64,000 nucleotides of DNA from Eubacteriales bacterium. Its GTDB lineage: Bacteria > Bacillota > Clostridia > Oscillospirales > CAG-272. Location of the stretch: positions 2,144-66,143 of the forward strand of contig JAZNJA010000090.1 of NCBI GenBank assembly GCA_045577755.1, in the 5' to 3' direction. The notes beneath the pieces were generated by a model. It was given only the letters and a program-made list of their open reading frames with translations. It had not been told where the DNA came from and searched no databases. How positions within the stretch are numbered: the first letter of the stretch is position 1; the number at the start of each line of letters is the position of its first letter. Made by a program: the position numbers and the translations under genes. Positions 21,888 to 55,453 of this stretch are shown here, piece after piece.

Positions 21888-21898
21888 AGTGCTTGGTT

Positions 21899-22008
21899 AA
21901 GATACAAAGATACAAGATACGAGATACAAGATAGAGGCGGTTCTCCGGCCATTTTCTATCTTGTATCTTGTATCTGCCGAGCCCTGCTCGGCGTGTATCT
22001 TGTATCTC
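21899..22008. repeat. GATACAA heptad repeats arranged as a long palindrome
   Basis: Left arm GATACAAAGATACAAGATACGAGATACAAGATAG. Right arm CTATCTTGTATCTTGTATC. An embedded GC hairpin GCCGAGC-CCT-GCTCGGC, then TATCTTGTATC again. Confidence 0.7.
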
Positions 22009-22021
22009 TTTTTGTCCTATT

Positions 22022-24538
22022 TTATTTTTTCAGCCCCAGTCTCTCGGCGGCCTCTTCCCTCATCTTGTACTTGAGGATCTTACCCGCGGCGTTCATGGGG
22101 AACTTCTCCACGAAGTCGATATAGCGGGGCACCTTGTGGCGGGCCATGTGGTCCAGGATGTACTGCTTCATCTCCTCCACGGTCATGGTCTCACCCTCAC
22201 GGAGGATGATGCAGGCCATGATCTCCTCGCCGTACTGCTTATCGGGCACGCCGATGACCTGGACGTCCCGCACCTTGGGATGGGTGTAGATGAACTCCTC
22301 GATCTCCTTGGGGTAGATGTTCTCACCGCCACGGATGATCATGTCCTTCAGGCGGCCCGTGATGAGGTAGTTCCCGTCGGGACGGCGGCAGGCCAGGTCA
22401 CCCGTGTGGAGCCAGCCGTCGTCGTCGATGGTCTCGGCGGTGGCGGCGGGCATCTTGTAGTAGCCCTTCATGATGTTGTAGCCGCGGGCCACGAACTCAC
22501 CGTTGACCCCGTCGGGGCAGTCCAGACCCGTCTCGGGGTCGATGATCTTGCACTCCACGTTGGCAAAGGCGGAGCCCACGGTCTCGGTGCGGACCTCCAG
22601 GCTGTCGTAGTAGCTGGACATGGTACAGCCGGGGGCGGCCTCGGTCTGACCGTAGACCGACACGATCTCCCGCATATTCATGACCTCGGGCTGTGCGGCC
22701 TTCTTCATCAGATCCGCGGGGCAGTTGGCGCCCGCCATGATGCCGATTCTCATGTAGGAGAAGTCGGTCTTGGCAAAGTCCTCGTGCTGCATCATAGCGA
22801 TGAACATGGTGGGCACGCCGTTGAAGGCGGTGATGTGCTCGTTGTGGACGCAGGCCAGAGCGGGCTTGGGGGAGAAGTAGGGCAGGGGGTACATGGTGGT
22901 ACCGTGGGTCATGGAGGCGGTCATGGACAGCACCATGCCGAAGCAATGGAACATGGGGACTTGGATCATCATGCGATCGGCGGTGGACAGCTCCATGTGG
23001 TCGCCGATGTACTTACCGTTGTTGACCACGTTGTAGTGGGTCAGCATGACGCCCTTGGGGAAGCCCGTGGTGCCCGAGGTGTACTGCATATTGCAGACGT
23101 CGTCCTTGTGAACGGCGGCGGCCATGCGGTGGACCTCCTCCACAGGGACCTGGACTGAACGAGCCACAGCCTCGTGCCACTCCATACAGCCCTTCTGGCG
23201 GTAGCCTACGGTGATGACGTTGCGCAAGAAGGGCAGACGGCGGGCGTGGAGGGGGGTGCCGGGGCGGAGGGTCTCCAGCTCGGGGCAAAGCTCGGCCACG
23301 ATCTTACCGTAATGGCAGTCCTTGGCTCCCTCGGTCATGATGAGGGTATGGGTATCCGACTGGCGGAGCAGGTACTCCACCTCGTGGATCTTGTAGGCGG
23401 TATTGACGGTGACCAGCACCGCGCCCAGCTTGACGGTAGCCCAGAAGGCGATGTACCACTGGGGGACGTTGGAGGCCCAGACCGCCACGTGGGTACCGGC
23501 CTTCACACCCATGGAGATCAGGGCGCGGGCGAAGGTGTCCACGTCGTCGCGGAACTCGGAATAGGTGCGGGTGTAGTCCAGGGTGGTATACTTGAAGGCG
23601 TACTGATCGGGGAACTCCTCCACCATGCGGTCCAGCACCTGGGAGAAGGTGAGATCAATGAGCTGATCCTTTTCCCAGACGTACTCGCCCGTGTGAGCGC
23701 GGTTGAAGTAGAGGGTGCGGCGCTTCTTGGAGGGATCGTCAAACTGCTTCATGAAGCTGCCGAACTGGGAGAGGATGATCTCCATATCATCCAGCTCCTC
23801 GCACCACCGGGGATCCCAGACCAGGGAGATGTAGCCGTCGTAGTTCACCGAGCGCAGAGCCAGCATGATCTCGGAGATGGGCAATTCACCCTCGCCCGCC
23901 AGGCAGAACTCCAGGCCGTCCTCGGTTCTGCGGGTGTCGCAGAAGTGGACGTGACGGACGTAGGCACCCAGATTCTTGATGATCTCCTCGGGAGTCTCAC
24001 CGCCACCGAAGTTGGCGGCGGACAGCTGCCACAGAGCGCCGAAGCTGTCGCTGGCAAAGCGGTCCAAGAGGTCGCGGAGGGCCACCGACTTGCAGAACAG
24101 ACCCGAGGTCTCCATGAGGAGACACACCCCGCCTGCCTCGGCCTCGGGGAGGACACGGGCAATCAGAGCGGCCACGTTCTCGATGGCGGCCTCCACCTCT
24201 CCCTCGGGAGCGGCGGCGGTGCGGAGACGGATATTGGGGATATGGAGGCTCTCCGCCACGTCCATGCAATGGAGGATCTCGGCCTCGGCCTCGGCAGCGG
24301 TGGCAGCGTCCGAGGGATCAATGAGGCAGTCAATACAGGGGACGGTCAGCTTCTTCTCATAGAGACGGCGGAGGGTAGCGGCGGCGGCATAGTCGTAAAA
24401 CGCGCCGTCACGGCTGACGAACATGGGGCCGTGGATGTTGTGGATCTCCACGCCGGCATAGCCCAGAGAGGAGGCCATGTCGCAGAACTCGTCGAAGGTA
24501 TGATTATGCCACCCTTTGGTGGAAAAAGAGAGTTTCAT
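22022..24538 (-). CDS. fusion protein: N-terminal xylose-isomerase-like TIM barrel (sugar phosphate isomerase/epimerase family) plus C-terminal AMP-dependent acyl-CoA synthetase/ligase (838 aa)
   Basis: Residues 1-~275, MKLSFSTKGWHNHTFDEFCDMASSLGYAGVEIHN..., look like an AP_endonuc_2-type barrel. From about residue 290: FadD-like adenylating enzyme (YTSGTTGFPKGVMLTH, GEFVARGYNIMKGYY, TGDL, PMNAAGKILK). Confidence 0.85.
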   Translation of the reverse strand: MKLSFSTKGWHNHTFDEFCDMASSLGYAGVEIHNIHGPMFVSRDGAFYDYAAAATLRRLYEKKLTVPCIDCLIDPSDAATAAEAEAEILHCMDVAESLHIPNIRLRTAAAPEGEVEAAIENVAALIARVLPEAEAGGVCLLMETSGLFCKSVALRDLLDRFASDSFGALWQLSAANFGGGETPEEIIKNLGAYVRHVHFCDTRRTEDGLEFCLAGEGELPISEIMLALRSVNYDGYISLVWDPRWCEELDDMEIILSQFGSFMKQFDDPSKKRRTLYFNRAHTGEYVWEKDQLIDLTFSQVLDRMVEEFPDQYAFKYTTLDYTRTYSEFRDDVDTFARALISMGVKAGTHVAVWASNVPQWYIAFWATVKLGAVLVTVNTAYKIHEVEYLLRQSDTHTLIMTEGAKDCHYGKIVAELCPELETLRPGTPLHARRLPFLRNVITVGYRQKGCMEWHEAVARSVQVPVEEVHRMAAAVHKDDVCNMQYTSGTTGFPKGVMLTHYNVVNNGKYIGDHMELSTADRMMIQVPMFHCFGMVLSMTASMTHGTTMYPLPYFSPKPALACVHNEHITAFNGVPTMFIAMMQHEDFAKTDFSYMRIGIMAGANCPADLMKKAAQPEVMNMREIVSVYGQTEAAPGCTMSSYYDSLEVRTETVGSAFANVECKIIDPETGLDCPDGVNGEFVARGYNIMKGYYKMPAATAETIDDDGWLHTGDLACRRPDGNYLITGRLKDMIIRGGENIYPKEIEEFIYTHPKVRDVQVIGVPDKQYGEEIMACIILREGETMTVEEMKQYILDHMARHKVPRYIDFVEKFPMNAAGKILKYKMREEAAERLGLKK

Positions 24539-24563
24539 GGTAATTTCCTGCTTTCAGAAAGGA

Positions 24564-25946
24564 TCAGACGGACTGCTCGAAGACAATCTTGTTGACGGCG
24601 CTGAGGTAGGCGCGAATGGAAGCACCGATGATGTCGGTGGAGATACCCGTACCGGCGTAGAGCTTGCCCTCGGCGCGAAGCTTCACCAGAGCCGAGCCCA
24701 TGGCCTCCTTGCCCTCGGTGACGGCCTGGATCTGGAAATCGTCCAGCTCAAAGTGACATCCCATGATCTGCTCCAGCGCCTTGATCGCGGCGTCGATGGG
24801 GCCGTCTCCCATGGAGATGCCCTGGAGCTGCTCTCCCTTCTTGTCCAGCACGATCTGGGCAGAGGCGGCGAGAGCGTTTCCGCCCGAGCTGTTGACCATG
24901 TAGCTGACCAGCGTGTAGGTGGGAGGCACCTGCATAGCCACGCCCGAGACAATGGCCTCCAGCTCCTTGGCCCCCACGGTCTTCTTGGCGGCCACGCGGA
25001 CGAACTCGTTGTACACGGCCTCCACGTCCTCCTCGGACAGGTCGTAGCCCAGCTTGGCCACGGCGGCGGATACGGCATCCTTGTCATCCTGAGCGTCCAG
25101 AGTAAAGCCGCTCTCGGAGGGGGAGGCGATATTGACCGAAGCGGCGCGGTCGATGCCCTTCCCCGCTACCACGCGGGAGATCTGGCGGAGGATGCGGTGG
25201 TACTCGGTGAGCTGGAGCCCTGCGGTGAAGCCGTAGTGGTTGCCGCAGTTGCGGATGATGCCGCAGAAGTCCTCCAGAGACACGCAGGCGCCCTCCACGG
25301 CGGTCTTGACGGTGTCGGCACCCATGCGGACGGCCAGGATGGCGGCGGCGGCGGCCATGGCGTTCTTGTCATCGCAGGAGACCCCCACGGGGACGGTCAC
25401 GGTGTCCATGACCCCCTTCACGAAGGCGGCGAACTCATCGGGCATCTTCTCCCCCGTGCTGTCGCAGACGGTAACGGCGGTAGCCCCCGCCTCCACGGCG
25501 GCGGTGAGGACGGCGGTCAGGAAGGCGGGCTCGGCGCGGGTGGCATCCACGGCGCAGAACTCCACGTCGGCGCAGACCGCCTTGGCTTTCGCCACGGTAG
25601 CGGAGACCCACTCGATCATCTTGGGAGGCTTCTTATGGGCGCTATACTCCATGCCCACGGGGGACACGGGCACCTCCACGCGGAGGCGGGGGTGCTTGGC
25701 GGCGGAGATCGCCTGTACAGCGTGGTCGAAGCTCTCGGCGGTCATGCCCACGCAGACCGACAAGACACCGGCCCCCGCGAAGGAGGAGGCGGTGCGGACG
25801 AAGAGGATATCGGTCTTGGGGTTATCAATGGCGGGCAGCTCGATGACGTCTACCTTCAGCTTTTCCAGCTGGCGGCAGATCTCGATCTTTTCCTTGAAGC
25901 TGAAGGCGCAGTTTTCACGGCACAGGGTACGGTCGGCGATTCTCAT
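24564..25946 (-). CDS. 2-isopropylmalate synthase/homocitrate synthase-family protein with degenerate catalytic motifs and an intact LeuA-type C-terminal regulatory domain (460 aa)
   Basis: HMGL-like barrel plus LeuA_dimer-like C-terminus (GDGPIDAAIKALEQI...AVTEGKEAMGSALVKL). The N-terminal motif is IADRTLCRENC rather than DTTLRDGEQ, and VSCDDKNAMAAA replaces the HxHND metal site. Confidence 0.8.
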   Translation of the reverse strand: MRIADRTLCRENCAFSFKEKIEICRQLEKLKVDVIELPAIDNPKTDILFVRTASSFAGAGVLSVCVGMTAESFDHAVQAISAAKHPRLRVEVPVSPVGMEYSAHKKPPKMIEWVSATVAKAKAVCADVEFCAVDATRAEPAFLTAVLTAAVEAGATAVTVCDSTGEKMPDEFAAFVKGVMDTVTVPVGVSCDDKNAMAAAAAILAVRMGADTVKTAVEGACVSLEDFCGIIRNCGNHYGFTAGLQLTEYHRILRQISRVVAGKGIDRAASVNIASPSESGFTLDAQDDKDAVSAAVAKLGYDLSEEDVEAVYNEFVRVAAKKTVGAKELEAIVSGVAMQVPPTYTLVSYMVNSSGGNALAASAQIVLDKKGEQLQGISMGDGPIDAAIKALEQIMGCHFELDDFQIQAVTEGKEAMGSALVKLRAEGKLYAGTGISTDIIGASIRAYLSAVNKIVFEQSV

Positions 25947-26079: not shown

Positions 26080-26350
26080 AAAACAAAAACCCCGAATGTA
26101 CAAACGTACATCCGAGGACGAAATTCATTCGCGGTACCACCTCGGTTATCTCAAAGCGAGATCACCTTATCGGAGCCCATCAGCTCCTCTGTCTTGTAAC
26201 GGGACAAACCGGAGAGACTTACTTCTTTCGGTTGGGTCTCTCTGCTCGGGAATGAGACTTACTTCACCCTCTCTATCGGCTCGCACCAACCGCCGACTCT
26301 CTGAAAGCAGGACAGGCAAAGAATAATTCCTTCATTGCATTTCTGTGATG
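26080..26350 (-). promoter_or_regulatory. T-box riboswitch leader 1 (inferred Leu specifier CUC)
   Basis: Minus-strand RNA has AGAGAG, a distal loop GGUUGGUGCGA, the T-box sequence GGUGGUACCGCG (26142..26131), and a terminator CCUCGGAUGUAC-GUUU-GUACAUUCGGGG followed by UUUUUGUUUU (26117..26080). Specifier slot CUC-A at 26256..26253. Confidence 0.8.
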
Positions 26351-26356
26351 TGGTGT

Positions 26357-26385
26357 ATTATAGCACACTTTTCCCTCTTTGTCAA
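26357..26385 (-). promoter_or_regulatory. consensus sigma-A promoter driving T-box 1
   Basis: Minus strand: TTGACA, 17 nt, TGC-TATAAT (extended -10). Confidence 0.7.
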
Positions 26386-26446
26386 GGGGTTTCGCGATAT
26401 TTTCGGCAACTTTTTATCCAAGTAAAATGTATTTGATGGAGAAAGG

Positions 26447-26472
26447 AAAACCGCGCCACAAGGCGCGGTTTT
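26447..26472. terminator. rho-independent terminator after ilvE (symmetric A/T flanks)
   Basis: AAAACCGCGCC-ACAA-GGCGCGGTTTT. Confidence 0.75.
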
Positions 26473-26487
26473 CGCGTAGAAAATTGA

Positions 26488-27552
26488 TCAGTCGATAGCC
26501 AGAGTCCAACCGAACTTGTCCTCGATCTTGCCCCACTGGATACCCGTCAGAGTATCGTACAGGTGCTGGGTGACCTCGCCGATCTTGCCACCGTTTACGG
26601 TGTACTTCTTATCCTTGTAGCACAGCTCGCCGATGGGAGAGACCACGGCGGCGGTACCGGTGCCCCAGGCCTCCTCCAGGGTGCCGTTCTCCATGGCCTC
26701 GGCCAGCTCGTCCACGCTGATGAGACGCTCGCTGACCTTGTAGCCCTCGGAGCGCAGGACCTCCAGGCAGGACATACGGGTGATACCGGGCAGGATGGAG
26801 CCCGAGAGCATGGGGGTCACGATCTCGCCACCTATTTTGAACATGACGTTCATGGCGCCCACCTCCTCGATGTACTTGCGGTGGACACCGTCCAGCCACA
26901 GCACCTGGGCATAGCCCTTCTTCTCGGCGCGTGCACCGGCACGGTTGGAGGCGGCGTAGTTACCGCCGCACTTGGTGTAGCCCGTACCGCCCTTGACGGC
27001 TCGGACGTCCTCGTCCTCGATCATGATACCAACGGGGTTGATGCCCTCCTTGTAGTAGCTGCCCACAGGAGAGGCGATGATCATGAAGGTGGTGTGATGG
27101 ACGGCGTGCACACCCAGGGTCTCGTCGTTACCGAACATCAGGGGACGGAGGTAAAGAGAGGTACCGGGGGCGGAGGGAGTCCAATCCTGCTCCATGTTCA
27201 CGAAGGCGGTCAGCACCTCCATGCCCAGCTCCTCGGGGATCTCGGGCAGGCACAGACGCTCGGCGGAGCGGTTCAGACGGCGGATGTTCTCAATGGGGCG
27301 GAAGAGCTGGACCTTACCGTCGGTGCGGCGGTAGGCCTTCAGACCCTCGAAGATCTCGGAGCCGTAGTGCAGGACCGTAGCGGCGGGATGGAGGGACAGG
27401 TTGCCGAAGGGGACGATGCGGGCGTCGTACCAGCCACGCTCGGGCTCGTACTCCATGAGGAACATATGGTCGGTAAAGATCTTACCGAAGCCCAGGGTGG
27501 AAGCGTCGGGCTTCTCCTTGGGGCAGGCGGTCTTGGTGATGGAAATATTCAT
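26488..27552 (-). CDS. ilvE: branched-chain amino acid aminotransferase
   Basis: 354 aa, class IV aminotransferase. LGFGKIFTDHMF, EGLKAYR, GGTGYTKCGGNYAAS. Confidence 0.92.
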   Translation of the reverse strand: MNISITKTACPKEKPDASTLGFGKIFTDHMFLMEYEPERGWYDARIVPFGNLSLHPAATVLHYGSEIFEGLKAYRRTDGKVQLFRPIENIRRLNRSAERLCLPEIPEELGMEVLTAFVNMEQDWTPSAPGTSLYLRPLMFGNDETLGVHAVHHTTFMIIASPVGSYYKEGINPVGIMIEDEDVRAVKGGTGYTKCGGNYAASNRAGARAEKKGYAQVLWLDGVHRKYIEEVGAMNVMFKIGGEIVTPMLSGSILPGITRMSCLEVLRSEGYKVSERLISVDELAEAMENGTLEEAWGTGTAAVVSPIGELCYKDKKYTVNGGKIGEVTQHLYDTLTGIQWGKIEDKFGWTLAID

Positions 27553-27634
27553 GACGGTGATTCCCTTTCATGTATGATTACCGAATGGGGCAGGGGCCCC
27601 ATGGGGGTTGCCAATATCCTTACGGGTATCGACT

Positions 27635-27744
27635 TTTTCCCAAGTACTTTTTTGAAAGTTTTGGGGATCCTTAAGGGACTTTTCTCAAAAGTCCCTTAAG
27701 CGGGTCAAGGGCAGAGCCCTTGTGGGGGGCAGGGGCAAAGCCCC
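27635..27744. repeat. intergenic palindromic repeat, family 2, between the oxidoreductase gamma gene and ilvE
   Basis: TTTTCCCAAGTACTTTTTTGAAAGTTTTGGGG; perfect hairpin CTTAAGGGACTTTT-CTC-AAAAGTCCCTTAAG (27670-27700); GGGCAGAGCCC; GGGGCAGGGGCAAAGCCCC. Confidence 0.45.
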
Positions 27745-27761
27745 TCGTTCTCCCGTTCTCC

Positions 27762-28295
27762 TCAGTAGTTCGCACCCAGCTCCAGAGCCTTGTAGTTCAG
27801 CTCCAGCATATCGGCGCGCTTGGCGGAGATGACCTTGGCGAGGGCGGCGTTGACGCCCTCCTCGTTGTACTCGCCCAGAGCGGCCAGAATCTTGCCCACC
27901 AGGATCATATTGCCCAGGGTGGGGATACCGTTCTCACCGGCCATGCGGGTGGCGGGGATGGCGTAGGCCTTGACGTCGGTGCGCTTCAGGGGGCGCTCGA
28001 TGAGGGAGGAATCGTAGAAGATCATGCCGCCCTTCTTGACGGCGGCCTCGTAGCGATCCAGAGAAGGCAGATTCATGGCCACCAGCACGTCGGGCTTAGC
28101 CACGATGGGAGAGCCCACCGCGCCGTCGGAGATGATGATGCCGCAGCTGGCGGTACCGCCGCGCATCTCGGGGCCGTAGGAGGGGAGCCAGCTCACGTTC
28201 TTGCCCTCGGTCAGGCCCTTGTAGGCTATGAACTTACCTGCGAACAGGATGCCCTGTCCGCCGAAGCCGGAAAAGAGAAATTCCTTGGTACTCAT
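27762..28295 (-). CDS. 2-oxoacid:ferredoxin oxidoreductase, gamma subunit
   Basis: 177 aa. [14 protein letters not shown] motif. Abuts the beta gene. Confidence 0.88.
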
Positions 28296-29063
28296 TTAGT
28301 TTTCCTCCTTCTTGGCTGCCTCGGCAGCGGCGGTTCTGTCCTTGTACACGCCCAGAGGGTAGTAGGGGATCATCTTGTCGTCGATCCACTTCAACGCCGC
28401 CTGGGGAGTCATGCCCCAGTTGGTGGGGCAGGTAGAAAGGACCTCGATCAGCGAGAAGCCCTTGCCCTCCACCTGATTCCGGAAGGCTTTCTTGATGGCC
28501 TTCTTGGCGTTGCGGATCTGCTTGACGTTATTCACGGTGACGCGCTCCAGATACTCGGGGCCGTCCAGGGTGGCCAGCATCTCGCAGACGCGGATGGGGA
28601 AACCGCACTGCTTGACGTCACGGCCGTAGGGGGAGGTCTGGGTCACCTGACCGGGCAGGGAGGTGGGGGCCATCTGACCGCCGGTCATGCCGTAAATGGC
28701 GTTGTTGACGAAGATGACGGTGATGTTCTCGTTACGGGCGGCGGCGTGGACCGTCTCGGCCATACCGATGGAGGCCAGGTCGCCGTCACCCTGGTAGGTG
28801 AAGACGATGCTGTCGGGCAGGGCGCGCTTGACACCCGTAGCGATGGCGGGAGCGCGGCCGTGGGCGGCCTCGATCATATCGCAGTTGAAGTAGTTGTAGG
28901 CCATGACCGAGCATCCCACAGGGGCGATGCCGATGGCGTTACCTTCGATCCCCAGCTCGTCCATGACCTCGGCCACCAGACGGTGGATGATACCGTGGGT
29001 ACAGCCGGGGCAGTAGTGGAAGGGGATATCGTTCAGGGCATGAGGTTTATCGAAAACGACCAT
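28296..29063 (-). CDS. 2-oxoacid:ferredoxin oxidoreductase, beta (TPP-binding) subunit
   Basis: 255 aa. YCPGCTHG and GDGD...NN TPP-binding motifs. Confidence 0.9.
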   Translation of the reverse strand: MVVFDKPHALNDIPFHYCPGCTHGIIHRLVAEVMDELGIEGNAIGIAPVGCSVMAYNYFNCDMIEAAHGRAPAIATGVKRALPDSIVFTYQGDGDLASIGMAETVHAAARNENITVIFVNNAIYGMTGGQMAPTSLPGQVTQTSPYGRDVKQCGFPIRVCEMLATLDGPEYLERVTVNNVKQIRNAKKAIKKAFRNQVEGKGFSLIEVLSTCPTNWGMTPQAALKWIDDKMIPYYPLGVYKDRTAAAEAAKKEEN

Positions 29064-30136
29064 TAGTTGTTACCTCCGATTCTGGCGGCGGTCTCCTTGA
29101 TGCTCTCCAGCACCTGCTCGGGGGAGGGGATCATACCGCCGACGCGGTTGCAAAGGGTGACGGGGGCCTTGCCCTCGGTGGCCAGCATCACGTCCTCGAT
29201 CATCTGACCCATGGACAGCTCCACCGAAATGTAGGCCTTACAGGTAGCCAAAGAATCCTTGAACGCCTTCTTGGGGAAGGGCCACAGGGTGATGGGACGG
29301 ATCATGCCCACCTTGATGCCCATCTCGCGGGCGGCGTCCACGGCGTTGCGGGAGACGCGGGAGGCGATGCCGAAGGCGGCGATGCAGATCTCGGCATCCT
29401 CCATGCGGTAGGTCTCGTACATGACCTCGTTCTCTTCAATCACCTTGTAGCGCTCGTAGCGGGCAAAGTTCAGCTCCTCCAGCTCCTCGGGAACCAGGGA
29501 CAGGGAGTTGACGATGTTGTGGACGCGCTCCAGCTTGGTGCCGGTGGTAGCCCAGGGCTTCTCGATCTTCTCGCCCACCTTCAGGGCGTCCAGAGCCACA
29601 GGCTCCATCATCTGACCCATGGTACCGTCGGCAAGGATCATGGAGGTCATGCGGTACTTGTCGGCCAGATCGAAGCCGTGGACGGTGAGCTCGGCCATCT
29701 CCTGCACAGAGGAGGGGGCCAGGACGATCATGTGGAAGTCACCGTGACCGCCGCCCTTGGTGGCCTGGAAGTAGTCGGCCTGGGAGGGCTGGATACCGCC
29801 GAGACCGGGGCCGCCGCGCTGGACGTTGACCACCAGAGAAGGCAGATCAGCGCCCGCCAGGTAGGACAGACCCTCGCTCTTGAGGGAGATTCCGGGGGAG
29901 GAGGAGGATGTCATGACACGGGTGCCGGTGGAGGCCACGCCGTAGACCATGTTGATGGCCGCGACCTCGGACTCTGCCTGGAGGAACACGCCGCCGATCT
30001 TGGGCAGCCGCTTGGCCATGTAGGCCGCGATCTCGGTCTGGGGGGTGATGGGGTAACCGAAGTAGTGGCGGCAGCCCGCGATGATGGCGGCCTCCGCGAT
30101 GGCCTCGTTACCCTTCATAAGTACCTTATCTGCCAT
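29063..30136 (-). CDS. 2-oxoacid:ferredoxin oxidoreductase, alpha subunit (VorB/KorA-like)
   Basis: Start trimmed to MADKVLMKGNEAIAEAAIIAGCRHYFGYPITPQTEI (AAAGGAGAG RBS). 357 aa. Confidence 0.9.
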   Translation of the reverse strand: MADKVLMKGNEAIAEAAIIAGCRHYFGYPITPQTEIAAYMAKRLPKIGGVFLQAESEVAAINMVYGVASTGTRVMTSSSSPGISLKSEGLSYLAGADLPSLVVNVQRGGPGLGGIQPSQADYFQATKGGGHGDFHMIVLAPSSVQEMAELTVHGFDLADKYRMTSMILADGTMGQMMEPVALDALKVGEKIEKPWATTGTKLERVHNIVNSLSLVPEELEELNFARYERYKVIEENEVMYETYRMEDAEICIAAFGIASRVSRNAVDAAREMGIKVGMIRPITLWPFPKKAFKDSLATCKAYISVELSMGQMIEDVMLATEGKAPVTLCNRVGGMIPSPEQVLESIKETAARIGGNN

Positions 30137-30141
30137 GTCGG

Positions 30142-30360
30142 TCACTCTCCTTTCTCTACCTTGATGATGCAGTCGGGGCACATGGTGGCGCAGAAGGCGC
30201 AACCAATGCAGGCCTCGATGTTCTCTGCCACCACGGGGTGGTGACCCTTCTTGTTGATCTGATCCTCAGCCAGTGCCAGCACGTGCTTGGGGCAGACGTC
30301 CACGCAAAGGCCGCAGCCCTTGCAGTTGTCGGTTTTGAAGGTCAATTTACATTTTGCCAT
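30142..30360 (-). CDS. 2-oxoacid:ferredoxin oxidoreductase, delta subunit (2x[4Fe-4S] ferredoxin)
   Basis: Start trimmed to MAKCKLTF (AAGGAG RBS). CKGCGLCVDVCP and CIGCAFCATMCP cluster motifs. 72 aa. Confidence 0.88.
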   Translation of the reverse strand: MAKCKLTFKTDNCKGCGLCVDVCPKHVLALAEDQINKKGHHPVVAENIEACIGCAFCATMCPDCIIKVEKGE

Positions 30361-30429
30361 ATGTTTACTCCTTGTTTCATTGAGCAAATTACACGGAATT
30401 ATTGGGACGGCACCCGCCTTCACGGATCC

Positions 30430-30536
30430 GTCATCCTGAGCGGAACGGAGCGCAGCGGAGTGCAGTCGAAGGATCTCTTCTTCCCCACAAGAGATCCTTC
30501 GGCTACGCGCGCGTCACGCGCTTTGCTCAGGATGAC
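30430..30536. repeat. palindromic module shared with the core of the 1284-1457 element
   Basis: GTCATCCTGAGCGG...GTCGAAGGATCTC / GAGATCCTTCGGC...GCTCAGGATGAC. Same arms as 1326-1422 but without the outer terminal repeats. Confidence 0.6.
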
Positions 30537-30568
30537 TCTTACCGGATCGGGGCATGATTTGAAGAGAA

Positions 30569-31237
30569 TCAAAGATACTTGTTTTTCTGCAGGCCCAGGG
30601 GGAACGCATTCGGCACCTTCCCTGCCACGGCGGGGTACAGCTCCTGTCTCACGGTGGTCATGACCACGGGAAGACCCGAAAGGCCGCTGACCTCCTCGGC
30701 GTAGGCCCCGGAGGCGAGGATATCCTCGGCGGTGGTCATGGCACCCAAGTTGGAGTTGTTGATCAACCCCGTGAAGCGGATGCCCCCCGCGAACTCGATC
30801 TCCCGCAGGACCTCCATGGTGGAGGCGGCGTCGCGGGTGAGAGGGCGGTAGCAGTTGATGACCATGAGCATCTCATAGTCGTTCTCCAAAAGGATCTTGG
30901 GAGCCAGACGGCCCAGCACCAAAGCTCCGCGGTCATCGCCGCCGATATCCAGGACGGCGGTCATGGAGCGGTCGTCGGTGAGGGCGTACATCTCCTGGGG
31001 AAGGGCGGGGATATCCACGTTACTGTTGGCGTAGGCCGAGCAGATGAGGCGGATGCCCTGCTGTTCAAAGAAGGCCGCGCTGTCCTTGGTGCGGAAGTAG
31101 GGGTTGACGATATCCAGATCCGCCACGGTGACGGTGTCGCGGGACTTCTTCAGCTCGGCGGCGATGTTCACCGCCACGTTGGTCTTGCCGCTGCCGTAGT
31201 GGCCGCAGAGGATGGTCAAGCGTTTGAGGGGATACAT
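30569..31237 (-). CDS. P-loop NTPase of the MinD/ParA/CooC-like (SIMIBI) type, 222 aa
   Basis: Start at MYPLKRLTILCGHYGSGKTNVAVNIA (deviant Walker A), GGGAGG RBS 7 nt upstream. 14 nt after the synthetase stop. Confidence 0.75.
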   Translation of the reverse strand: MYPLKRLTILCGHYGSGKTNVAVNIAAELKKSRDTVTVADLDIVNPYFRTKDSAAFFEQQGIRLICSAYANSNVDIPALPQEMYALTDDRSMTAVLDIGGDDRGALVLGRLAPKILLENDYEMLMVINCYRPLTRDAASTMEVLREIEFAGGIRFTGLINNSNLGAMTTAEDILASGAYAEEVSGLSGLPVVMTTVRQELYPAVAGKVPNAFPLGLQKNKYL

Positions 31238-31251
31238 GAGGTTGCCTCCCA

Positions 31252-33579
31252 TCACAGCTTATTGCGCTGGATCTTACCGCTGGTGGTCTTGGGCAGCTCG
31301 TCGCGGAAGACCACGATACGGGGATACTTGTAGGGGGCGGTGCGCTCCTTGACGTAGCGCTGGATCTCGCGCTTCAGCTCCTCGGTAGGCTCGGTTCCCT
31401 TCACCAGCACGATGGAGGCCTTGACCACCTGGCCGCGGACCTCGTCGGGCTCGGCGGAAACGCCGCACTCCAGGACGAAGGGCAGCTCCATGATGACAGA
31501 CTCGATCTCAAAGGGCCCGATGCGGTAGCCCGAGGACTTGATGACGTCGTCCACGCGGCCAACGAACCAGTAGAAGCCGTCCTCGTCCTTCCAGGCGGTA
31601 TCACCGGTATGGTAGTAGCCGTCGTGCCAGACCTCGGCGGTCTTGTCGGGAGCGTTGTAGTAGCCGGTGAACAGACCGCAGGGGGCGCCGTCAGCCACGC
31701 GGATGCAGATCTCGCCCGTCTCACCCACGGGAACGGGCTTACCGTCGGCATCCTGCAGTTCCACCTCGTAGATGGGGGCAGGCTTACCCATGGAGCCGAT
31801 CTTGTGGGGGGCGCCGGTGAGGTTACCGATGATCATGGTGGACTCGGACTGACCGAAGCCCTCCAGGATCTGGAGTCCCGTGGCCTTCTCGAACTGGCGG
31901 TAGACCTCGGGGTTGAGGGCCTCGCCCGCGGTGGTCATGTGGCGCACCGAGGAGAGGTCGTACTTGGAGATATCCTCCTTCACCATCATGCGGAGCATGG
32001 TGGGAGGGGCGCAGAAGGTGGTGATCTGGTGCTTGGCGAACATAGGAAGAATATCCGCCGCGTCGAAGCGGTCGAAATCGTAGACGAAGGTGGCCGCCTC
32101 GCAAAGCCACTGTCCGTAGAGCTTACCCCACATGGACTTGGCCCAGCCCGTGTCGGAGATGGTCAAATGGAGACCGTCGGGATGGACGTTGTGCCAGTAG
32201 CGGGCGGTATGGAAGTGACCCAGGGGGTACTTGTGGTTGTGAGCCGCGATCTTGGGGTAGCCCGAGGTGCCCGAGGTGAAGAACATGAGGAGCAGATCGT
32301 CGCCGCAGGGGGAGTCCTCGGTGCGGTTGAAGTGGGAGGAGAACAGGGTGTACTCCTCGTCAAAGGTACGCCAGCCCTCTCGCTCGCCGTTCACAATGAT
32401 CTTGTGCTTGAGGGTAGGACAATGCTCGGCGGCCAGATCCACCTGATGGGCGGTGTCGCCGTCGGCGGTGCAGAGGATAGCCGAGACACCCGCGGAGTTG
32501 AAGCGGTACTCGAAGTCATGCTCCTGGAGCTGGTTGGTAGCGGGGATGGCGATGGCACCCAGCTTATTCAGACCCAGCATGGCGAACCAGAACTGGTAGT
32601 GGCGCTTCAGCACCAGCATGACGCGGTCGCCCTTCTTGATGCCCAGGGACTTGAAGTAGTTAGCGCACTGGGCGGAGGCCCGCTTCATGTCCTTGAAGGT
32701 GAAGCGACGCTCGGTGTGATCGCGGGAGACGTGGAGCATGGCCAGTTTCTCAGGATCCTTCTCGGCCACGGCGTCCACCAGGTCGAAGGCGAAGTTGAAC
32801 TTATCGGTGTTCTTGAAGGTAATGGAGGTAGGCGTACCAAGAGCGTTCTCGGTGACGTCGATGAACTTACGCCAGACGCGGTCGCTCTGCTGGTCGCGGT
32901 GGACCGTGGTCTCCTTCTTGGTGGCGGGGACCGCCTCGGTGGGAGCCAACTCGGGAATAGGCTCGCCCGTGGGGTTGAGGACGATGGCGTAGAACACGCA
33001 GTCCTGACCGCCCACGGCGATCATACCGTGAGGGGTATCGGAATCGTAGTAGATGGTATCGCCCGCGCTGAGCACCTCGGTATGCTCGCCCACCTGGACC
33101 ATGAGCTTACCCTCGATGACGATATCCAGCTCCTGCCCCGCGTGGGTGGTCAGCTCGATGTCGCGGTGCTGGGCCTCCTCGGAGTAGGCGGAGCGCACGA
33201 ACAGAGGCTCGGCAATACGGTTCTGGAAGGCGTAGGCCATGTTGTAGTACACCATGCCGTGGGCCTTGGCGATCTCCTGCCCCGCACCCGCGCGGGTGAC
33301 GGTGTAGGACTTCAGCTTGGGGCTGTAGCCTTCAATAATTTCGGTGACGTTGACGTTCAGCGCCAGGGCGCAACGGTAGATGAACGCGAAGTTGAGGTCG
33401 CTCTGACCGCTCTCGCAGAGGAGGTACTCCTCCACCGACACGCCGGTCTTGGCGGCCATCTGCTGGGGCTCCAGCCCCTCGATCTCACGGAGGGCGCGGA
33501 TTCGACCCGCCATCTCCTTGATCTTAAAATCCAATCCGGACATGGAGGAGGGCTCCATCGTTTTGGTTATCTGATCCAT
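31252..33579 (-). CDS. fusion protein: XRE-type HTH plus cupin plus AMP-forming acyl-CoA synthetase (775 aa), paralog 1
   Basis: Start trimmed to MDQITKT (GAAAGGA RBS). HTH (LEPQQMAAKTGVSVEEYLLCESGQ). Cupin (HAGQELDIVIEGKLMVQVGE...GDTIYYDSDTPHGM). Synthetase (FFTSGTSGYPKIA, TGDTAWKDEDGFYWFVGRVDDVIKSSGYRIGPFEIES, PKTTSGKIQR). Confidence 0.88.
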   Translation of the reverse strand: MDQITKTMEPSSMSGLDFKIKEMAGRIRALREIEGLEPQQMAAKTGVSVEEYLLCESGQSDLNFAFIYRCALALNVNVTEIIEGYSPKLKSYTVTRAGAGQEIAKAHGMVYYNMAYAFQNRIAEPLFVRSAYSEEAQHRDIELTTHAGQELDIVIEGKLMVQVGEHTEVLSAGDTIYYDSDTPHGMIAVGGQDCVFYAIVLNPTGEPIPELAPTEAVPATKKETTVHRDQQSDRVWRKFIDVTENALGTPTSITFKNTDKFNFAFDLVDAVAEKDPEKLAMLHVSRDHTERRFTFKDMKRASAQCANYFKSLGIKKGDRVMLVLKRHYQFWFAMLGLNKLGAIAIPATNQLQEHDFEYRFNSAGVSAILCTADGDTAHQVDLAAEHCPTLKHKIIVNGEREGWRTFDEEYTLFSSHFNRTEDSPCGDDLLLMFFTSGTSGYPKIAAHNHKYPLGHFHTARYWHNVHPDGLHLTISDTGWAKSMWGKLYGQWLCEAATFVYDFDRFDAADILPMFAKHQITTFCAPPTMLRMMVKEDISKYDLSSVRHMTTAGEALNPEVYRQFEKATGLQILEGFGQSESTMIIGNLTGAPHKIGSMGKPAPIYEVELQDADGKPVPVGETGEICIRVADGAPCGLFTGYYNAPDKTAEVWHDGYYHTGDTAWKDEDGFYWFVGRVDDVIKSSGYRIGPFEIESVIMELPFVLECGVSAEPDEVRGQVVKASIVLVKGTEPTEELKREIQRYVKERTAPYKYPRIVVFRDELPKTTSGKIQRNKL

Positions 33580-33610
33580 GTTTGATCCTTTCTCGGGTGT
33601 CGCGAGGCGC

Positions 33611-33920
33611 ACCAAAAGCAAAGCAAGCGCACCCGTCCCAAAGTTTCGTTACTTTGAGACGAGTGCGCATAAATCATTTATACAGCACCCGCGGTACCAC
33701 TCAAATTGCGGAAAGCTCCGCCACTCAGTCGGGTCCATCAACCCGTAGACACTAACGCGGTCTGACTCGGAGCGGGTCTACTCTCACGGGATTTTTCCCA
33801 CGGTGATTTCTTCCGCTCGGCTCGGGAGCTACAAATACCGCGACCGTGTCGGTAGCTTACACCAACCGCTACCTCTCTTTGGACCGTGCCGTGGCATCCT
33901 CTCCGTCAATGCCTTTGATA
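33611..33920 (-). promoter_or_regulatory. T-box riboswitch leader 2 (inferred Val specifier GUA)
   Basis: AGAGAG, then GUAGC-GGUUGGUGUAA-GCUAC. T-box AAUUUGAGUGGUACCGCG. Terminator GCGCACUCGUCUCAAAGU...ACUUUGGGACGGGUGCGC followed by UUGCUUUGCUUUU. Specifier slot GUA-G at 33832..33829. Confidence 0.8.
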
Positions 33921-33926
33921 CAGATA

Positions 33927-33955
33927 ATTATAACACAACTTTGTTTGTTTGTCAA
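33927..33955 (-). promoter_or_regulatory. consensus sigma-A promoter driving T-box 2
   Basis: Minus strand: TTGACA, 17 nt, TGT-TATAAT. Confidence 0.7.
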
Positions 33956-34035
33956 TTATTTTATTTGGGTAAAACCACGCAAAATTTCCTGTCATGACAA
34001 GTAATTTTTTGTAGTATTTCACACCTTCCCGCGGC

Positions 34036-36369
34036 TTACAGCTTGTTGCGCTGGATCTTGCCGCTGATGGTCTTGGGCAGCTCGTCGCGGAAGACCACGA
34101 TACGGGGGTACTTGTAGGGAGCGGTGTTCTTCTTGACGTAGTTCTGGATCTCCTTCTTCAGCTCCTCGGTGGGCTCGGTACCCTTCACCAGGACGACGGA
34201 GGCCTTGACCACCTGGCCGCGGACCTCGTCGGGCTCGGCGGACACACCGCACTCCAGGACGTAGGGCAGCTCCATGATGACAGACTCGATCTCGAAGGGC
34301 CCGATGCGGTAGCCCGAGGACTTGATCACGTCGCCCACGCGGCCCACGTACCAGTAGAAGCCGTCCTCATCGCACCAAGCGGTGTCGCCGGTATGGTAGT
34401 AGCCGTCGTGGAGGACCTCGTCGGTCTTCTCCTGGTTGCGGTAGTAACCCAGGAAGAGGCCGCAGGGAGCCTTGTCGCCCACCTTGATGACGATCTCGCC
34501 CGTCTCGCCGTCGGGGACGGGGTTGCCGTCGGGATCCACCAGCATCATGTCGTACAGGGGCGAGGGCTTACCCATGGAGCCTACCTTGTGGGGATTGCCC
34601 ATGAGGTTGGCGATGGACAGGGTAGTCTCGGTCTGGCCGAAGCCCTCCTTGATCTGGAGGCCCGTAGCCTTCTCGAACTGGCGGTAGACCTCGGGGTTGA
34701 GGGCCTCGCCCGCGGTGGTCATGTGGCGGACAGAGGAGAAATCGTACTTGGAGATGTCCTCCTTGATCATCATGCGGAGCATGGTGGGAGGCGCGCAGAA
34801 GGTGGTGATCTGGTACTTGGCAAACATGGGGAGGATCACCGAGGCGTCGAAGCGGTCGAAGTCGTAGGTGAAGACCGCGCCCTCGGCCAGCCACTGACCG
34901 TAGAGCTTGCCCCACAGAGCCTTGCCCCAGCCCGTATCCGAGATGGTGAAGTGGAGGCCGTCCTCGCTCACACCGTGCCAGTACTTGGCGGTGATGTAGT
35001 GGCCCAGAGCGTACTTGTAGCTGTGGGCGGCGATCTTGGGATAGCCCGTGGTGCCCGAGGTGAAGAACATGATCATGGGATCGTCACCGCAGGGGGTGTC
35101 GTCGCCGCGGTAGAAGTGAGCGGAATAGAGGGGGAACTCCTTGTCGAAGTTGCGCCAGCCCTCGCGGTCGCCGCCCACCAGGATCTTGGTCTTGAGGGAG
35201 GGAGACTCGACCTCGGCCAGCTCCACCTGACGGGCTACGTCACCGTCGGCGGTACAGACGATGGCAGACACCTCGGCGGCGTTGAAGCGGTACTCCAGAT
35301 CGTGCTTGACCAGCTGGTTGGTGGCGGGGATGGCGATGGCGCCCAGCTTATGGAGGCCCAGGATGGCGAACCAGAACTGGTAGTGGCGCTTGAGCACCAG
35401 CATGACGCGGTCGCCCTTTTGGATGCCCAGAGACTTGAAGTAGTTGGCGGCCTGGTTGGAGGCGCGCTTCATATCGTTGAAGGTAAAGCGGCGCTCCACC
35501 ATGTCGCGGGAGATGTGGAGCATGGCCAGCTTGTTGGGATCCCGCTTGGCGAGGGCGTCCACCACGTCGAAGGCGAAGTTGAACCGATCCTCGTTCTTGA
35601 AGGTGATCTTCTGCAAAGCCCCGTTCTCGTCCACCACGGTGTCGATGAAGGGGGTGGTGACCGTCTCGGTGGCGGGGAGCGCCTCGGTATGGACCTGGCG
35701 CAGAGTCTCCTGCACCAGCTCGGCAGACAGGGCGCTCTCACCGGGGAGGACCACCGCCATGAAAAGGCAATCCTGGCCGTCCACGGCGATCATACCGTGG
35801 GGGGTGGAGGAATTGTAGTAGATGCTGTCGCCGGCCTCCAGGTACTCCACGTTGGAGCCGACCTGGACCTTCAGCTTGCCCTCCAGCACGAAGTCGAACT
35901 CCTGACCCGCGTGCTTGACGAGATGGATGGGCTTGTTCTGCAGCTCGGGGTCGTACTCGTAGCGGACGCGGTAGGGCTCGGCGATCTTCTTGCGGAAGAG
36001 GGGGGCCACCGACATGATGCTGATGCCCGCCTCCTTGGCGGTCTCCTGGCCCTCGCCCTTGCGGGTGACGGTGTAGGAGGACAGATGGGCGGAGCGACCC
36101 TCCAAGAGATCGGTAATACCAATGCCGAAGGCCTGGGCGCACTTGTGGATGAATGTGAAGGGGAAGTCCAGCTCTCCCGCCTCGTAGGCCACGTAAGCGG
36201 CGTTGCTGACCTCGGTCTTCTCGGCCATCTCGGCTACGGTGAAGCCGCAGATATCACGCATCTCGCGGATACGGATCGCGACCTCCTGGAGCTTCGCCCG
36301 GTCGTTCGCTCGGGCATTGGCCGAAGCGGCGACCGTATCTACGGCATTCGTTCTTGTTTCTTTTGCCAT
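34036..36369 (-). CDS. fusion protein: XRE-type HTH plus cupin plus AMP-forming acyl-CoA synthetase (777 aa), paralog 2
   Basis: AAGGAGG RBS. Same architecture as 31252-33579. The C-terminal ~110 aa are nearly identical between the two. Confidence 0.88.
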   Translation of the reverse strand: MAKETRTNAVDTVAASANARANDRAKLQEVAIRIREMRDICGFTVAEMAEKTEVSNAAYVAYEAGELDFPFTFIHKCAQAFGIGITDLLEGRSAHLSSYTVTRKGEGQETAKEAGISIMSVAPLFRKKIAEPYRVRYEYDPELQNKPIHLVKHAGQEFDFVLEGKLKVQVGSNVEYLEAGDSIYYNSSTPHGMIAVDGQDCLFMAVVLPGESALSAELVQETLRQVHTEALPATETVTTPFIDTVVDENGALQKITFKNEDRFNFAFDVVDALAKRDPNKLAMLHISRDMVERRFTFNDMKRASNQAANYFKSLGIQKGDRVMLVLKRHYQFWFAILGLHKLGAIAIPATNQLVKHDLEYRFNAAEVSAIVCTADGDVARQVELAEVESPSLKTKILVGGDREGWRNFDKEFPLYSAHFYRGDDTPCGDDPMIMFFTSGTTGYPKIAAHSYKYALGHYITAKYWHGVSEDGLHFTISDTGWGKALWGKLYGQWLAEGAVFTYDFDRFDASVILPMFAKYQITTFCAPPTMLRMMIKEDISKYDFSSVRHMTTAGEALNPEVYRQFEKATGLQIKEGFGQTETTLSIANLMGNPHKVGSMGKPSPLYDMMLVDPDGNPVPDGETGEIVIKVGDKAPCGLFLGYYRNQEKTDEVLHDGYYHTGDTAWCDEDGFYWYVGRVGDVIKSSGYRIGPFEIESVIMELPYVLECGVSAEPDEVRGQVVKASVVLVKGTEPTEELKKEIQNYVKKNTAPYKYPRIVVFRDELPKTISGKIQRNKL

Positions 36370-36395
36370 GGTAGTGTCCTCCTTGGGATCGTTTA

Positions 36396-36687
36396 CGAAT
36401 AAAAAAACACACCTGCCTCAAAACACTTTGAGACGGGTGCATAACACTCGCGGTACCACTCAAATTGCGGAAAAGCTTCCGCCACTCTTCGGAATCCAAT
36501 AATTCCTATGCTCTCACGCGGCATCCACGGGAGTCTCTACTTTCATCCATGGGACGGGTTCAAGTCCTCCGGCTCGGAAGGGATGGGTCTCTCAGGGGAA
36601 TACCGTCTGCTCGCACCAACCGCCGACTCTCTGTACGCATCCGACCTTGACCGTCTTCGTCATAGCCTTTGTCTTTTTATTCGATTG
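36396..36687 (-). promoter_or_regulatory. T-box riboswitch leader 3 (inferred Ile specifier AUC)
   Basis: AGAGAG, then GGUUGGUGCGA loop. T-box AAUUUGAGUGGUACCGCG. Terminator hairpin followed by UUUUUUUAUU. Specifier slot AUC-C at 36584..36581. Confidence 0.75.
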
Positions 36688-36692
36688 CGCGT

Positions 36693-36721
36693 ATTATAGC
36701 ACAATTTCGTTGACTTGTCAA
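36693..36721 (-). promoter_or_regulatory. consensus sigma-A promoter driving T-box 3
   Basis: Minus strand: TTGACA, 17 nt, TGC-TATAAT. Confidence 0.7.
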
Positions 36722-41657: not shown

Positions 41658-41661
41658 GGTA

Positions 41662-42735: not shown

Positions 42736-42757
42736 AGTATCAGACCTCCTTGCCGTA

Positions 42758-55203: not shown

Positions 55204-55271
55204 GTTCCTTACCTTTCTGACGCTTTTCGGCGTATTTTCGACACAAATAAAAAAGTCCATGCGTAAACAGT

Positions 55272-55300
55272 ATTTTATCACATCGAGATGGATAATTCAA
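55272..55300 (-). promoter_or_regulatory. candidate sigma-A promoter of the giant protease/opp unit
   Basis: Minus strand: TTGAAT, 17 nt, TAAAAT, in an AT-rich divergent intergenic region. Confidence 0.45.
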
Positions 55301-55453
55301 GAGCAAATTGTAAACATATATCATTAATAATAAAAAATCCGGAAACCCCCTTGATTTTTTCCGAAGTTTGTGGTATGCTATACGATGTTGTTCTATGCTC
55401 CTTTGTAGCCCATCACATACATAGCGAACAAAATCCCTGATAGGAGAAAAAAC

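Follow-up and report, generated by a model that had tools for sequence, protein, structure and literature searches.

The question raised by this locus was which amino acids are sensed by three T-box leaders within a 64,000-nt stretch of Oscillospirales DNA (the whole stretch analysed, hereafter the window), and what purpose is served by the genes behind them. A T-box specifier names directly the amino acid that a downstream gene serves, which few other sequence features do. The T-box type is known; the interest of the locus lies in its regulon of branched-chain acyl-CoA ligase paralogs, a 2-ketoisovalerate:ferredoxin oxidoreductase (VOR) and a branched-chain aminotransferase. The best overall explanation, which is very probably correct, is that the leaders sense the tRNAs of Leu, Val and Ile and divide among them a putative pathway from branched fatty acids to amino acids.

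The leaders were located at 26111–26344 (leader 1), 33652–33918 (leader 2) and 36426–36672 (leader 3); all positions are those of the window, and all features described here lie on its minus strand. The three leaders shared the order of elements claimed in the first-pass annotation, and the motifs were found at the positions given there: UGA(A/C), a 4-nt strand, AGAGAG, the distal loop GGUUGGUG(CGA/UAA), a triplet plus one base, the complementary strand, and CGAGC. In leader 1, UGAA (26334–26331) was followed by the basal helix of GGAA (26330–26327) with UUCC (26252–26249), the AG bulge (26302–26297) and the distal loop (26291–26284). The same elements of leader 2 were UGAC (33908–33905), GGAG (33904–33901) with CUCC (33828–33825), the AG bulge (33878–33873) and the distal loop (33867–33860). 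Leader 3 had the K-turn UGAC (36662–36659), GAAG (36658–36655) with CUUC (36580–36577), the AG bulge (36632–36627) and the distal loop (36621–36614). The T-box bulge was UGGUACC in all three, at 26139–26133, 33699–33693 and 36458–36452, respectively. All Stem I parts, namely the K-turn GA motif, specifier loop, AG bulge and distal loop, were thus present in each leader; the specifier-loop S-turn was non-canonical in leaders 2 and 3.

The leaders were compared with the T-box family model of Rfam, RF00230, which has a gathering score of 93 bits. Leader 1 scored above it (112.3 bits, E = 5e-24). Leaders 2 and 3 scored below it, at 77.6 bits (E = 2.4e-16) and 78.1 bits (E = 1.7e-16), both E values rounding to 2e-16. 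All three matches covered the full model (1–219), and those of leaders 2 and 3 are far beyond chance. Inspection of the specifier column in this alignment had been proposed as a check on the manual Stem I alignment, and it returned identical triplets: CUC (26254–26256) followed by A at 26253 in leader 1, GUA (33830–33832) followed by G at 33829 in leader 2, and AUC (36582–36584) followed by C at 36581 in leader 3. The triplets fell in the 'uuca' columns of the model, directly 5' of the basal helix strand.

The specifier slot was then examined in 150 aligned copies of Stem I, drawn from 80 related loci of gut and rumen Oscillospirales, one per species. AUC occupied it in 69 copies, GUA in 49, CUC in 23, GUC in 8, and GCA in a single aberrant copy. 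Codon positions 1 and 2 were 100% conserved within each class. Position 3 did not vary among Ile or Leu copies, and in the Val class its only variation was synonymous (GUA/GUC). The neighbouring specifier-loop positions were 39–95% conserved, and Stem I overall was about 65% identical. Downstream genes were assigned to the leaders by tblastn. AUC was followed by one clade of HTH-cupin-acyl-CoA-synthetase genes (69/69), GUA or GUC by the sister clade (56 of the 56 scorable leaders), and CUC by a LeuA-like gene (23/23). The triplets co-evolve with the downstream genes. The proposed control by Leu, Val and Ile was supported by the RF00230 triplets, the codon conservation within classes and this exceptionless match between triplet and gene, and at the sequence level the three leaders were confirmed as T-boxes with Leu, Val and Ile codons.

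The base pairing of Stem I was evaluated in the same 150 copies. The covariation between the two 4-nt strands, first noticed in the three leaders of the window, was upheld: the strands were 100% paired, in seven Watson-Crick combinations plus two single G-U variants. Compensatory double changes occurred at three of the four pairs of this basal helix, and slid controls paired at 28–49%. The Stem I helices were 98.6–100% paired, again with compensatory changes. The UGGU bulge, which had been read as compatible with discriminator A73, was found in 147 of the 150 homologs. Among tRNA genes, those for Leu(GAG), Val and Ile were found neither in the window nor in the loci scanned (41 of the 80), where only unrelated tRNAs occurred, so the matching of anticodon and discriminator was assumed.

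A purine 3' of the specifier is a usual T-box feature and is not absolute. Leader 1 has one (A), as does leader 2 (G), but leader 3 has C, for which reason it had been called the least certain. This caveat was lifted by the Ile class (n = 69), in which the base after AUC was A in 34 leaders, C in 31, G in 3 and U in 1; C after AUC is a normal variant in Ile leaders. The C in leader 3, the specifier loops without a canonical S-turn, and the U that precedes GUA in most Val leaders could also be taken to mean that the frame is shifted by at least one base, so that some leaders sense another tRNA: CAU (His) or CCA (Pro) in leader 3, UGU (Cys) in leader 2. The bases before AUC, however, varied (CCC, CCU, CAG, UCG, CUU), as did those before GUC (U, C, G), so the shifted triplets are unconserved. 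A shift of +1 would turn the leader 2 triplet into the stop codon UAG, and the base 3' of the triplet varied freely (A 34, C 31). The unshifted codons are solely those of branched-chain amino acids, which match the LeuA, VOR and IlvE context. A shifted frame is scarcely credible on this evidence, and such readings were dropped because the flanking bases are not conserved.

The scores of leaders 2 and 3 below the Rfam gathering score, and the HTH-cupin domains of the regulated proteins themselves, would also fit decayed T-box relics, with genes that are constitutive or controlled by protein, for example by their own HTH domains. Against this, the K-turn, AG bulge, distal loop, UGGU bulge, competing antiterminator and terminator, and perfect promoter are all intact, and in up to 80 species the leaders have been kept, with compensatory changes. 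Decay is very unlikely, and it was dropped in view of the intact elements and the conservation among related loci.

Each leader had its own promoter, with TTGACA, a 17-nt spacer, TATAAT and a TG before the −10 hexamer (12/12 consensus): 26357–26385 for leader 1, 33927–33955 for leader 2 and 36693–36721 for leader 3. The terminators were a 12-bp stem with a U tract at 26080–26117 (leader 1; −23.2 kcal/mol, z = −2.4), an 18-bp stem with a U-rich tail at 33617–33668 (leader 2; −42 kcal/mol, z = −6.0), and a hairpin with a U tract at 36401–36439 (leader 3; −21.3 kcal/mol, z = −2.85). A MIR1862 match at leader 2 was rejected as merely this terminator hairpin. In all three leaders the terminator hairpin shared a strand with the antiterminator and was the default fold; in leader 3, the 5' strand of the terminator overlapped the 3' strand of the antiterminator. 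The leaders would act as transcription-attenuating riboswitches, each behind its own consensus promoter. Without tRNA, each would fold into the intrinsic terminator. An uncharged tRNA would dock by three contacts: the anticodon with the specifier, the elbow with the Stem I platform of AG bulge and distal loop, and the free ACCA end with the UGGU bulge. Docking would stabilise the antiterminator and allow read-through. The predicted effectors are tRNA-Leu(GAG) for CUC, tRNA-Val(UAC) for GUA and tRNA-Ile(GAU) for AUC.

Leader 3 is followed by HCA_Ile (34036–36369), in Pfam terms a 777-aa protein in which HTH and cupin domains are fused to an AMP-forming acyl-CoA synthetase. Behind leader 2 is its paralog HCA_Val (31252–33579), with the same Pfam domains and 69% identity to HCA_Ile; its start is probably the ATG at 33579. 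The next gene (30569–31255) encodes a 228-aa P-loop NTPase of ParA/MinD/Mrp type, assigned by weak Pfam matches, and its position between the ligase and VOR genes was conserved across loci. A four-subunit 2-oxoacid:ferredoxin oxidoreductase of VorB type (27762–30423) comprises delta (30423–30142), alpha (about 30133–29063), beta (29063–28296) and gamma (28295–27762). VOR alpha scored 540.1 bits against the VorB cut-off of 399 (NF005507), and with delta, beta and gamma adjacent the enzyme was assigned as a 2-ketoisovalerate:ferredoxin oxidoreductase. The branched-chain amino acid aminotransferase (IlvE type II, 26488–27552) was above both NCBIfam cut-offs (NF009897, 472.8 bits against 307; TIGR01123, 394.1 against 250). 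Leader 1 heads a 460-aa LeuA-like protein (24564–25946) with HMGL-like and LeuA allosteric (LeuA_dimer) domains. Its best isopropylmalate synthase score was 259.8 bits, below the cut-off of 532 (equivalogs NF002086 and TIGR00973), and by this score it is a divergent family member. The remaining Leu module (21015–24538), conserved beside CUC T-boxes, consists of a protein that joins a xylose-isomerase-like TIM barrel to an AMP-binding acyl-CoA ligase (24538–22022), followed by an Amidohydro_2 protein (21887–21015). Gene order was conserved across the related loci.

The two ligases were compared in detail. Unsupervised clustering of 116 ligase proteins (UPGMA on identity distances) gave two groups that were exactly the split between AUC and GUA/GUC. 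The best-matching model was MbcS (NF047394), with 432.4 bits for HCA_Val and 425.9 bits for HCA_Ile, both below the equivalog cut-off of 850; judged by these scores the proteins are MbcS homologs, not equivalogs. The ligase domain was closest to Macs of Methanosarcina acetivorans (PDB 3ETC, 611 bits), which prefers 2-methylbutyrate (PMC10455477). Macs and Staphylococcus aureus MbcS (about 430 bits) are short branched-chain acyl-CoA synthetases and share the GWGK motif with the HCA ligases. The Trp of this motif in the HCA proteins is probably the acyl-pocket Trp259 of Macs, a residue number that assumes a tag offset in 3ETC. Within the ligase domain a single position was a fixed difference between the clades (Ile, G482; Val, A494). 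It adjoins the Trp aligned to the WG of the Macs motif, and Macs likewise has Gly there. HCA_Ile is predicted to be a 2-methylbutyrate-CoA ligase and HCA_Val an isobutyrate-CoA ligase. Unlike Macs and MbcS, the HCA proteins carry an extra N-terminal HTH and cupin of about 260 residues and form two co-evolving paralogs, each behind its own T-box. These N-terminal domains held 10 of the 11 clade-fixed differences, and a sequence search with the 260 residues gave no informative relative of solved structure.

The three switches are suggested to divide a pathway from branched short-chain fatty acids to branched-chain amino acids. The Ile switch would turn on the predicted 2-methylbutyrate-CoA ligase, the Val switch the predicted isobutyrate-CoA ligase together with VOR and the aminotransferase, and the Leu switch the LeuA-like module. 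VOR would reductively carboxylate the acyl-CoA to the 2-oxoacid. AMP-forming ligases work in the direction from acid to acyl-CoA. The cluster would probably let gut and rumen Clostridia make Leu, Val and Ile from branched short-chain fatty acids. It is possible, as a more tentative proposal, that the specifiers serve as a built-in annotation of a hitherto uncharacterised system of this kind, widespread among Oscillospirales of gut and rumen, in which the paralogs handle 2-methylbutyrate and isobutyrate, the Gly/Ala switch sets the acyl size, the HTH-cupin region adds a second, paralog-specific layer of sensing, and the Leu module is a non-canonical route to the Leu keto acid.

The specifiers may also be read correctly and the regulon still serve another end, either the supply of branched acyl-CoA primers for membrane fatty acids or the catabolism of amino acids with an oxidative VOR. 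MbcS is the nearest family with a name and has its role in fatty acid synthesis, where it provides such primers in S. aureus (PMC10026030, PMC11167679). VOR enzymes are reversible, and a search of the literature outside subscription journals gave no paper that ties these genes to reductive carboxylation. Induction of a T-box by the uncharged cognate tRNA, on the other hand, implies that the genes supply the amino acid, and it fits neither breakdown nor lipid synthesis. Catabolism needs no AMP-forming ligase. The genes for ligase, VOR and aminotransferase lie close together, controlled by switches specific to amino acids. Isovalerate carboxylation with subsequent amination is an accepted rumen route to Leu (PMC7356843). 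A role in lipid synthesis or catabolism is accordingly considered unlikely, and supply of the three amino acids is preferred. Two points about VOR count against the supply pathway: all three branches would need VOR and the aminotransferase, yet both occur in the Val operon only, and VOR could run oxidatively.

Allison and colleagues reportedly found in the 1960s–70s that rumen bacteria form Val, Ile and Leu by reductive carboxylation of isobutyrate, 2-methylbutyrate and isovalerate, respectively. This physiology is matched by the genes present, namely an acid-CoA ligase, VOR and an aminotransferase, and by their occurrence in Oscillospirales of rumen and gut. The isoacid studies dealt with patterns of labelling and with activities rather than with genes or their regulation, and we infer the link to the present cluster. 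A literature search outside subscription journals returned no paper on a T-box upstream of a cluster of acyl-CoA ligase, VOR and aminotransferase, and an earlier description is possible. By their specifiers, three uncharacterised gene modules that are conserved in at least 80 gut and rumen Clostridia species are assigned to Ile, Val and Leu, and the codons allow a prediction of the ligase for 2-methylbutyrate and the one for isobutyrate. The modules offer candidates for the genes behind the classic isoacid requirement of rumen bacteria that degrade fibre, a matter of interest for ruminant nutrition and for what becomes of branched-chain fatty acids in the human gut.

Among known T-boxes, the ileS and valS leaders of Firmicutes (RF00230) share their Stem I architecture and amino acid specificities with the present leaders; the Ile specifier is usually AUC. 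Preference for particular specifier codons has been described as conserved (PMC2494555). Whereas the ileS and valS leaders regulate tRNA synthetases, the present Ile and Val leaders control genes for acyl-CoA ligase, VOR and aminotransferase. Leaders 2 and 3 fall short of the Rfam gathering score, and almost half of the leaders in the Ile class carry a pyrimidine 3' of the codon. For T-box biology these findings are an incremental advance, though they do show that a whole lineage tolerates a pyrimidine 3' of the specifier. Leader 1 is of the same type as the Bacillus subtilis ilv-leu T-box, which is attenuating, has a UGGU bulge, heads a biosynthetic operon containing leuA, and carries a CUC Leu specifier according to Marta et al. 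1996 as cited in PMC2494555. It differs from that of ilvBHC-leuABCD in the genes that follow, which here are the divergent LeuA-like gene, the TIM-barrel/acyl-CoA-ligase fusion and Amidohydro_2.

The motifs that the first-pass annotation had read by eye in three T-box leaders were all found on the minus strand, each at the position claimed for it. Leaders 1 to 3 shared the order UGA(A/C), a 4-nt strand, AGAGAG, a hairpin with loop GGUUGGUG(CGA/UAA), a triplet plus one nucleotide, the complementary 4-nt strand, and CGAGC. The triplet and next base were CUCA in leader 1 (26256..26253, minus strand), GUAG in leader 2 (33832..33829, minus strand), and AUCC in leader 3 (36584..36581, minus strand). 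The claimed T-box bulge was present as UGGUACC in all three. Against RF00230 (gathering score 93), leader 1 (26344..26111, minus strand) scored above threshold with 112.3 bits; leader 2 (33918..33652, minus strand; 77.6 bits, E = 2.4e-16) and leader 3 (36672..36426, minus strand; 78.1 bits, E = 1.7e-16) scored below it. All three matches covered model positions 1-219. In this alignment, the triplet and next base proposed as specifier fell in the 'uuca' columns in every leader; these columns lie immediately 5′ of the basal helix's 3′ strand and the K-turn GAGC.

Each leader had the same TTGACA-17 nt-TATAAT promoter with TG upstream of TATAAT, a 12/12 consensus match (minus strand; 26357..26385, 33927..33955, and 36693..36721 for leaders 1, 2, and 3). 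At looser criteria (at least 9/12), the promoter scan gave 8 sites, against a mean of about 4 in shuffled controls of the region. Each leader also contained a terminator made up of a hairpin and a U tract; the hairpin was the default fold and had one strand in common with the antiterminator. Since leaders 2 and 3 have their own promoter and a terminator sharing a strand with the antiterminator, they are complete despite their sub-threshold Rfam scores.

Because covariation cannot be established from only three sequences, relatives were gathered. The HCA gene (HTH-cupin-acyl-CoA-synthetase fusion) of leader 3 had thousands of relatives in gut metagenomes. A scan at one genome per species gave 80 loci, all from Oscillospirales-type Clostridia of the guts of humans, ruminants, and other animals. 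A Stem I covariance model, for which the three window leaders supplied the sequences and just their three safest helices the structure, matched 159 copies, 150 of which were aligned. The basal helix was 100% paired in the 150 copies, with changes on both sides at three of four pairs, which bears out the covariation claimed earlier. Seven Watson-Crick strand combinations and two further variants with a single G-U were observed. Fitting the copies to the model biases the alignment toward pairing; however, pairing fell to 28–49% when the 3′ partner was slid by 1–3 columns. These controls and the diversity of pair types argue that the basal helix is real.

The specifier slot held AUC in 69 copies, GUA in 49, CUC in 23, GUC in 8, and GCA in 1. 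Stem I identity within each class was only about 63–66%, and loop positions beside the codon were 39–95% conserved. Codon positions 1 and 2 were 100% conserved within each class; position 3 was fixed for Ile and Leu and varied for Val only by the synonymous exchange of A and C. Shifted specifier frames were rejected, because the bases 5′ of the triplet were variable and such frames were not kept. The base 3′ of AUC in the Ile class was A in 34 copies, C in 31, G in 3, and U in 1. Leader 3 had been considered the least certain owing to its C after AUC, but this C is an ordinary variant (31/69 Ile leaders).

The link to the downstream gene was examined independently of the RNA model, by tblastn on the 3.2 kb 3′ of every Stem I copy. 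All 69 AUC copies preceded the HCA type nearest the leader-3 gene, 56/56 GUA/GUC copies preceded the type nearest the leader-2 gene (one more lay at a contig end), and 23/23 CUC copies preceded a LeuA-like gene. When clustered by identity into two groups, 116 full-length HCA proteins reproduced the AUC versus GUA/GUC split with zero exceptions. Judging from these matches, specifier and enzyme paralog have therefore co-evolved, in up to 80 species, and this co-evolution is the strongest support for the triplets as functional codons. RF00230 columns, codon conservation, and gene-clade match agree on the Leu/Val/Ile triad; the leaders were shown by sequence and comparison to be T-box attenuators with these specifiers, and the predicted assignment is correct and now well supported.

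T-boxes with Leu, Val, and Ile specificities are textbook knowledge, so the leader RNAs belong to an already known class. In Bacillus subtilis, the ilv-leu operon has a CUC specifier, as in leader 1 (cited in PMC2494555). No description of a T-box upstream of a ligase, VOR (2-ketoisovalerate:ferredoxin oxidoreductase), and aminotransferase cluster was found in the literature searched, in which subscription journals were poorly covered. The value of the finding lies in codon-based enzyme predictions rather than in the riboswitches as such.

The array in the window was co-directional (minus strand), and its order was kept in most related loci of sufficient length. The Ile unit consisted of its T-box and HCA_Ile (34036..36369). 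The Val unit consisted of its T-box, HCA_Val (31252..33579), a P-loop NTPase, VOR delta/alpha/beta/gamma, and a branched-chain aminotransferase; VorB and IlvE were above their NCBIfam cut-offs. The Leu unit consisted of its T-box, a LeuA-like protein, a TIM-barrel/AMP-ligase fusion, and an Amidohydro_2 protein. This conserved Leu module (21015..25946, minus strand), with a divergent LeuA-like protein and a xylose-isomerase-like TIM barrel joined to the AMP-binding ligase, was divergently oriented to the Ile/Val array in some loci. It may provide the Leu keto acid by a non-canonical route. No terminator was found in the gap from HCA_Ile to the Val leader or in that from the aminotransferase to the Leu leader, so transcription read-through among the three units is possible. 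In one species (L043:12337-12585), the Val-clade ligase was absent and an aberrant T-box immediately preceded the P-loop and VOR genes. The specifier loop of this T-box had a 4–5 nt insertion (..GCAUCUGCAU, then CUCC), and the codon was ambiguous: GCA, or UGC with a helix one pair longer.

Both HCA proteins are fusions of HTH, cupin, and AMP-forming acyl-CoA synthetase. Within 33577..33621 (minus strand), the mechanically called ORF start of HCA_Val, TTG at 33621, falls in the terminator tail; the start is likely ATG 33579, preceded by GAGAAAGGA. The best-matching model for the ligase domain was MbcS (about 430 bits, under the 850 cut-off), and the nearest solved structure was Methanosarcina acetivorans Macs (3ETC, 611 bits). 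Macs prefers 2-methylbutyrate (PMC10455477), and MbcS activates 2-methylbutyrate and isobutyrate in Staphylococcus aureus (PMC10026030). Eleven alignment columns split the Ile and Val clades, one of them in the ligase domain: Gly482 in 69/69 Ile-clade versus Ala494 in 47/47 Val-clade proteins (numbered from TTG 33621 in HCA_Val), in the motif DTGW[G/A]K. This residue adjoins a Trp aligned with the W of the Macs GWGK motif, which is assumed to be the acyl-pocket Trp259 (numbering via an assumed tag offset in the 3ETC chain). Macs has Gly here, like the predicted 2-methylbutyrate enzyme HCA_Ile; the Gly/Ala difference is a hint that fits the Ile/Val assignment. The N-terminal ~260 residues of both proteins comprised an XRE-type HTH and a cupin, a PuuR-like architecture with a weak match. 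As 10 of the 11 clade-fixed residues lie in this part (residues 27-133 of the Ile paralog), a paralog-specific DNA- or ligand-binding role is suggested.

Conversion of branched short-chain fatty acids to branched-chain amino acids is old rumen physiology. Leu, for example, is made from isovalerate in the rumen (PMC7356843). In the proposed pathway, the fatty acid would be activated to the acyl-CoA, VOR would reductively carboxylate this to the 2-oxoacid, and the aminotransferase would yield the matching amino acid. The biosynthetic direction is favoured because a T-box switches genes on at amino acid shortage and AMP-forming ligases go from acid to acyl-CoA. VOR and the aminotransferase stood behind the Val switch only, though all three branches would need them. 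Uncharged tRNA-Leu(GAG), tRNA-Val(UAC), and tRNA-Ile(GAU) would stabilise the respective antiterminators. No cognate Leu(GAG), Val, or Ile tRNA gene for anticodon and A73 comparison was found in the window or in the 41 of 80 loci scanned.

Elsewhere in the window, a Gut-1 RNA (RF01706; 63735..63809, minus strand) scored 56.4 bits, above the gathering score of 50. Gut-1 is an sRNA family from gut metagenomes with hairpins spaced by GUGAAAU. Two very long ORFs of 2967 and 1073 aa lay within 46378..58276 (minus strand); downstream of them, 39428..43750 holds the operon of an Opp-type peptide ABC transporter.
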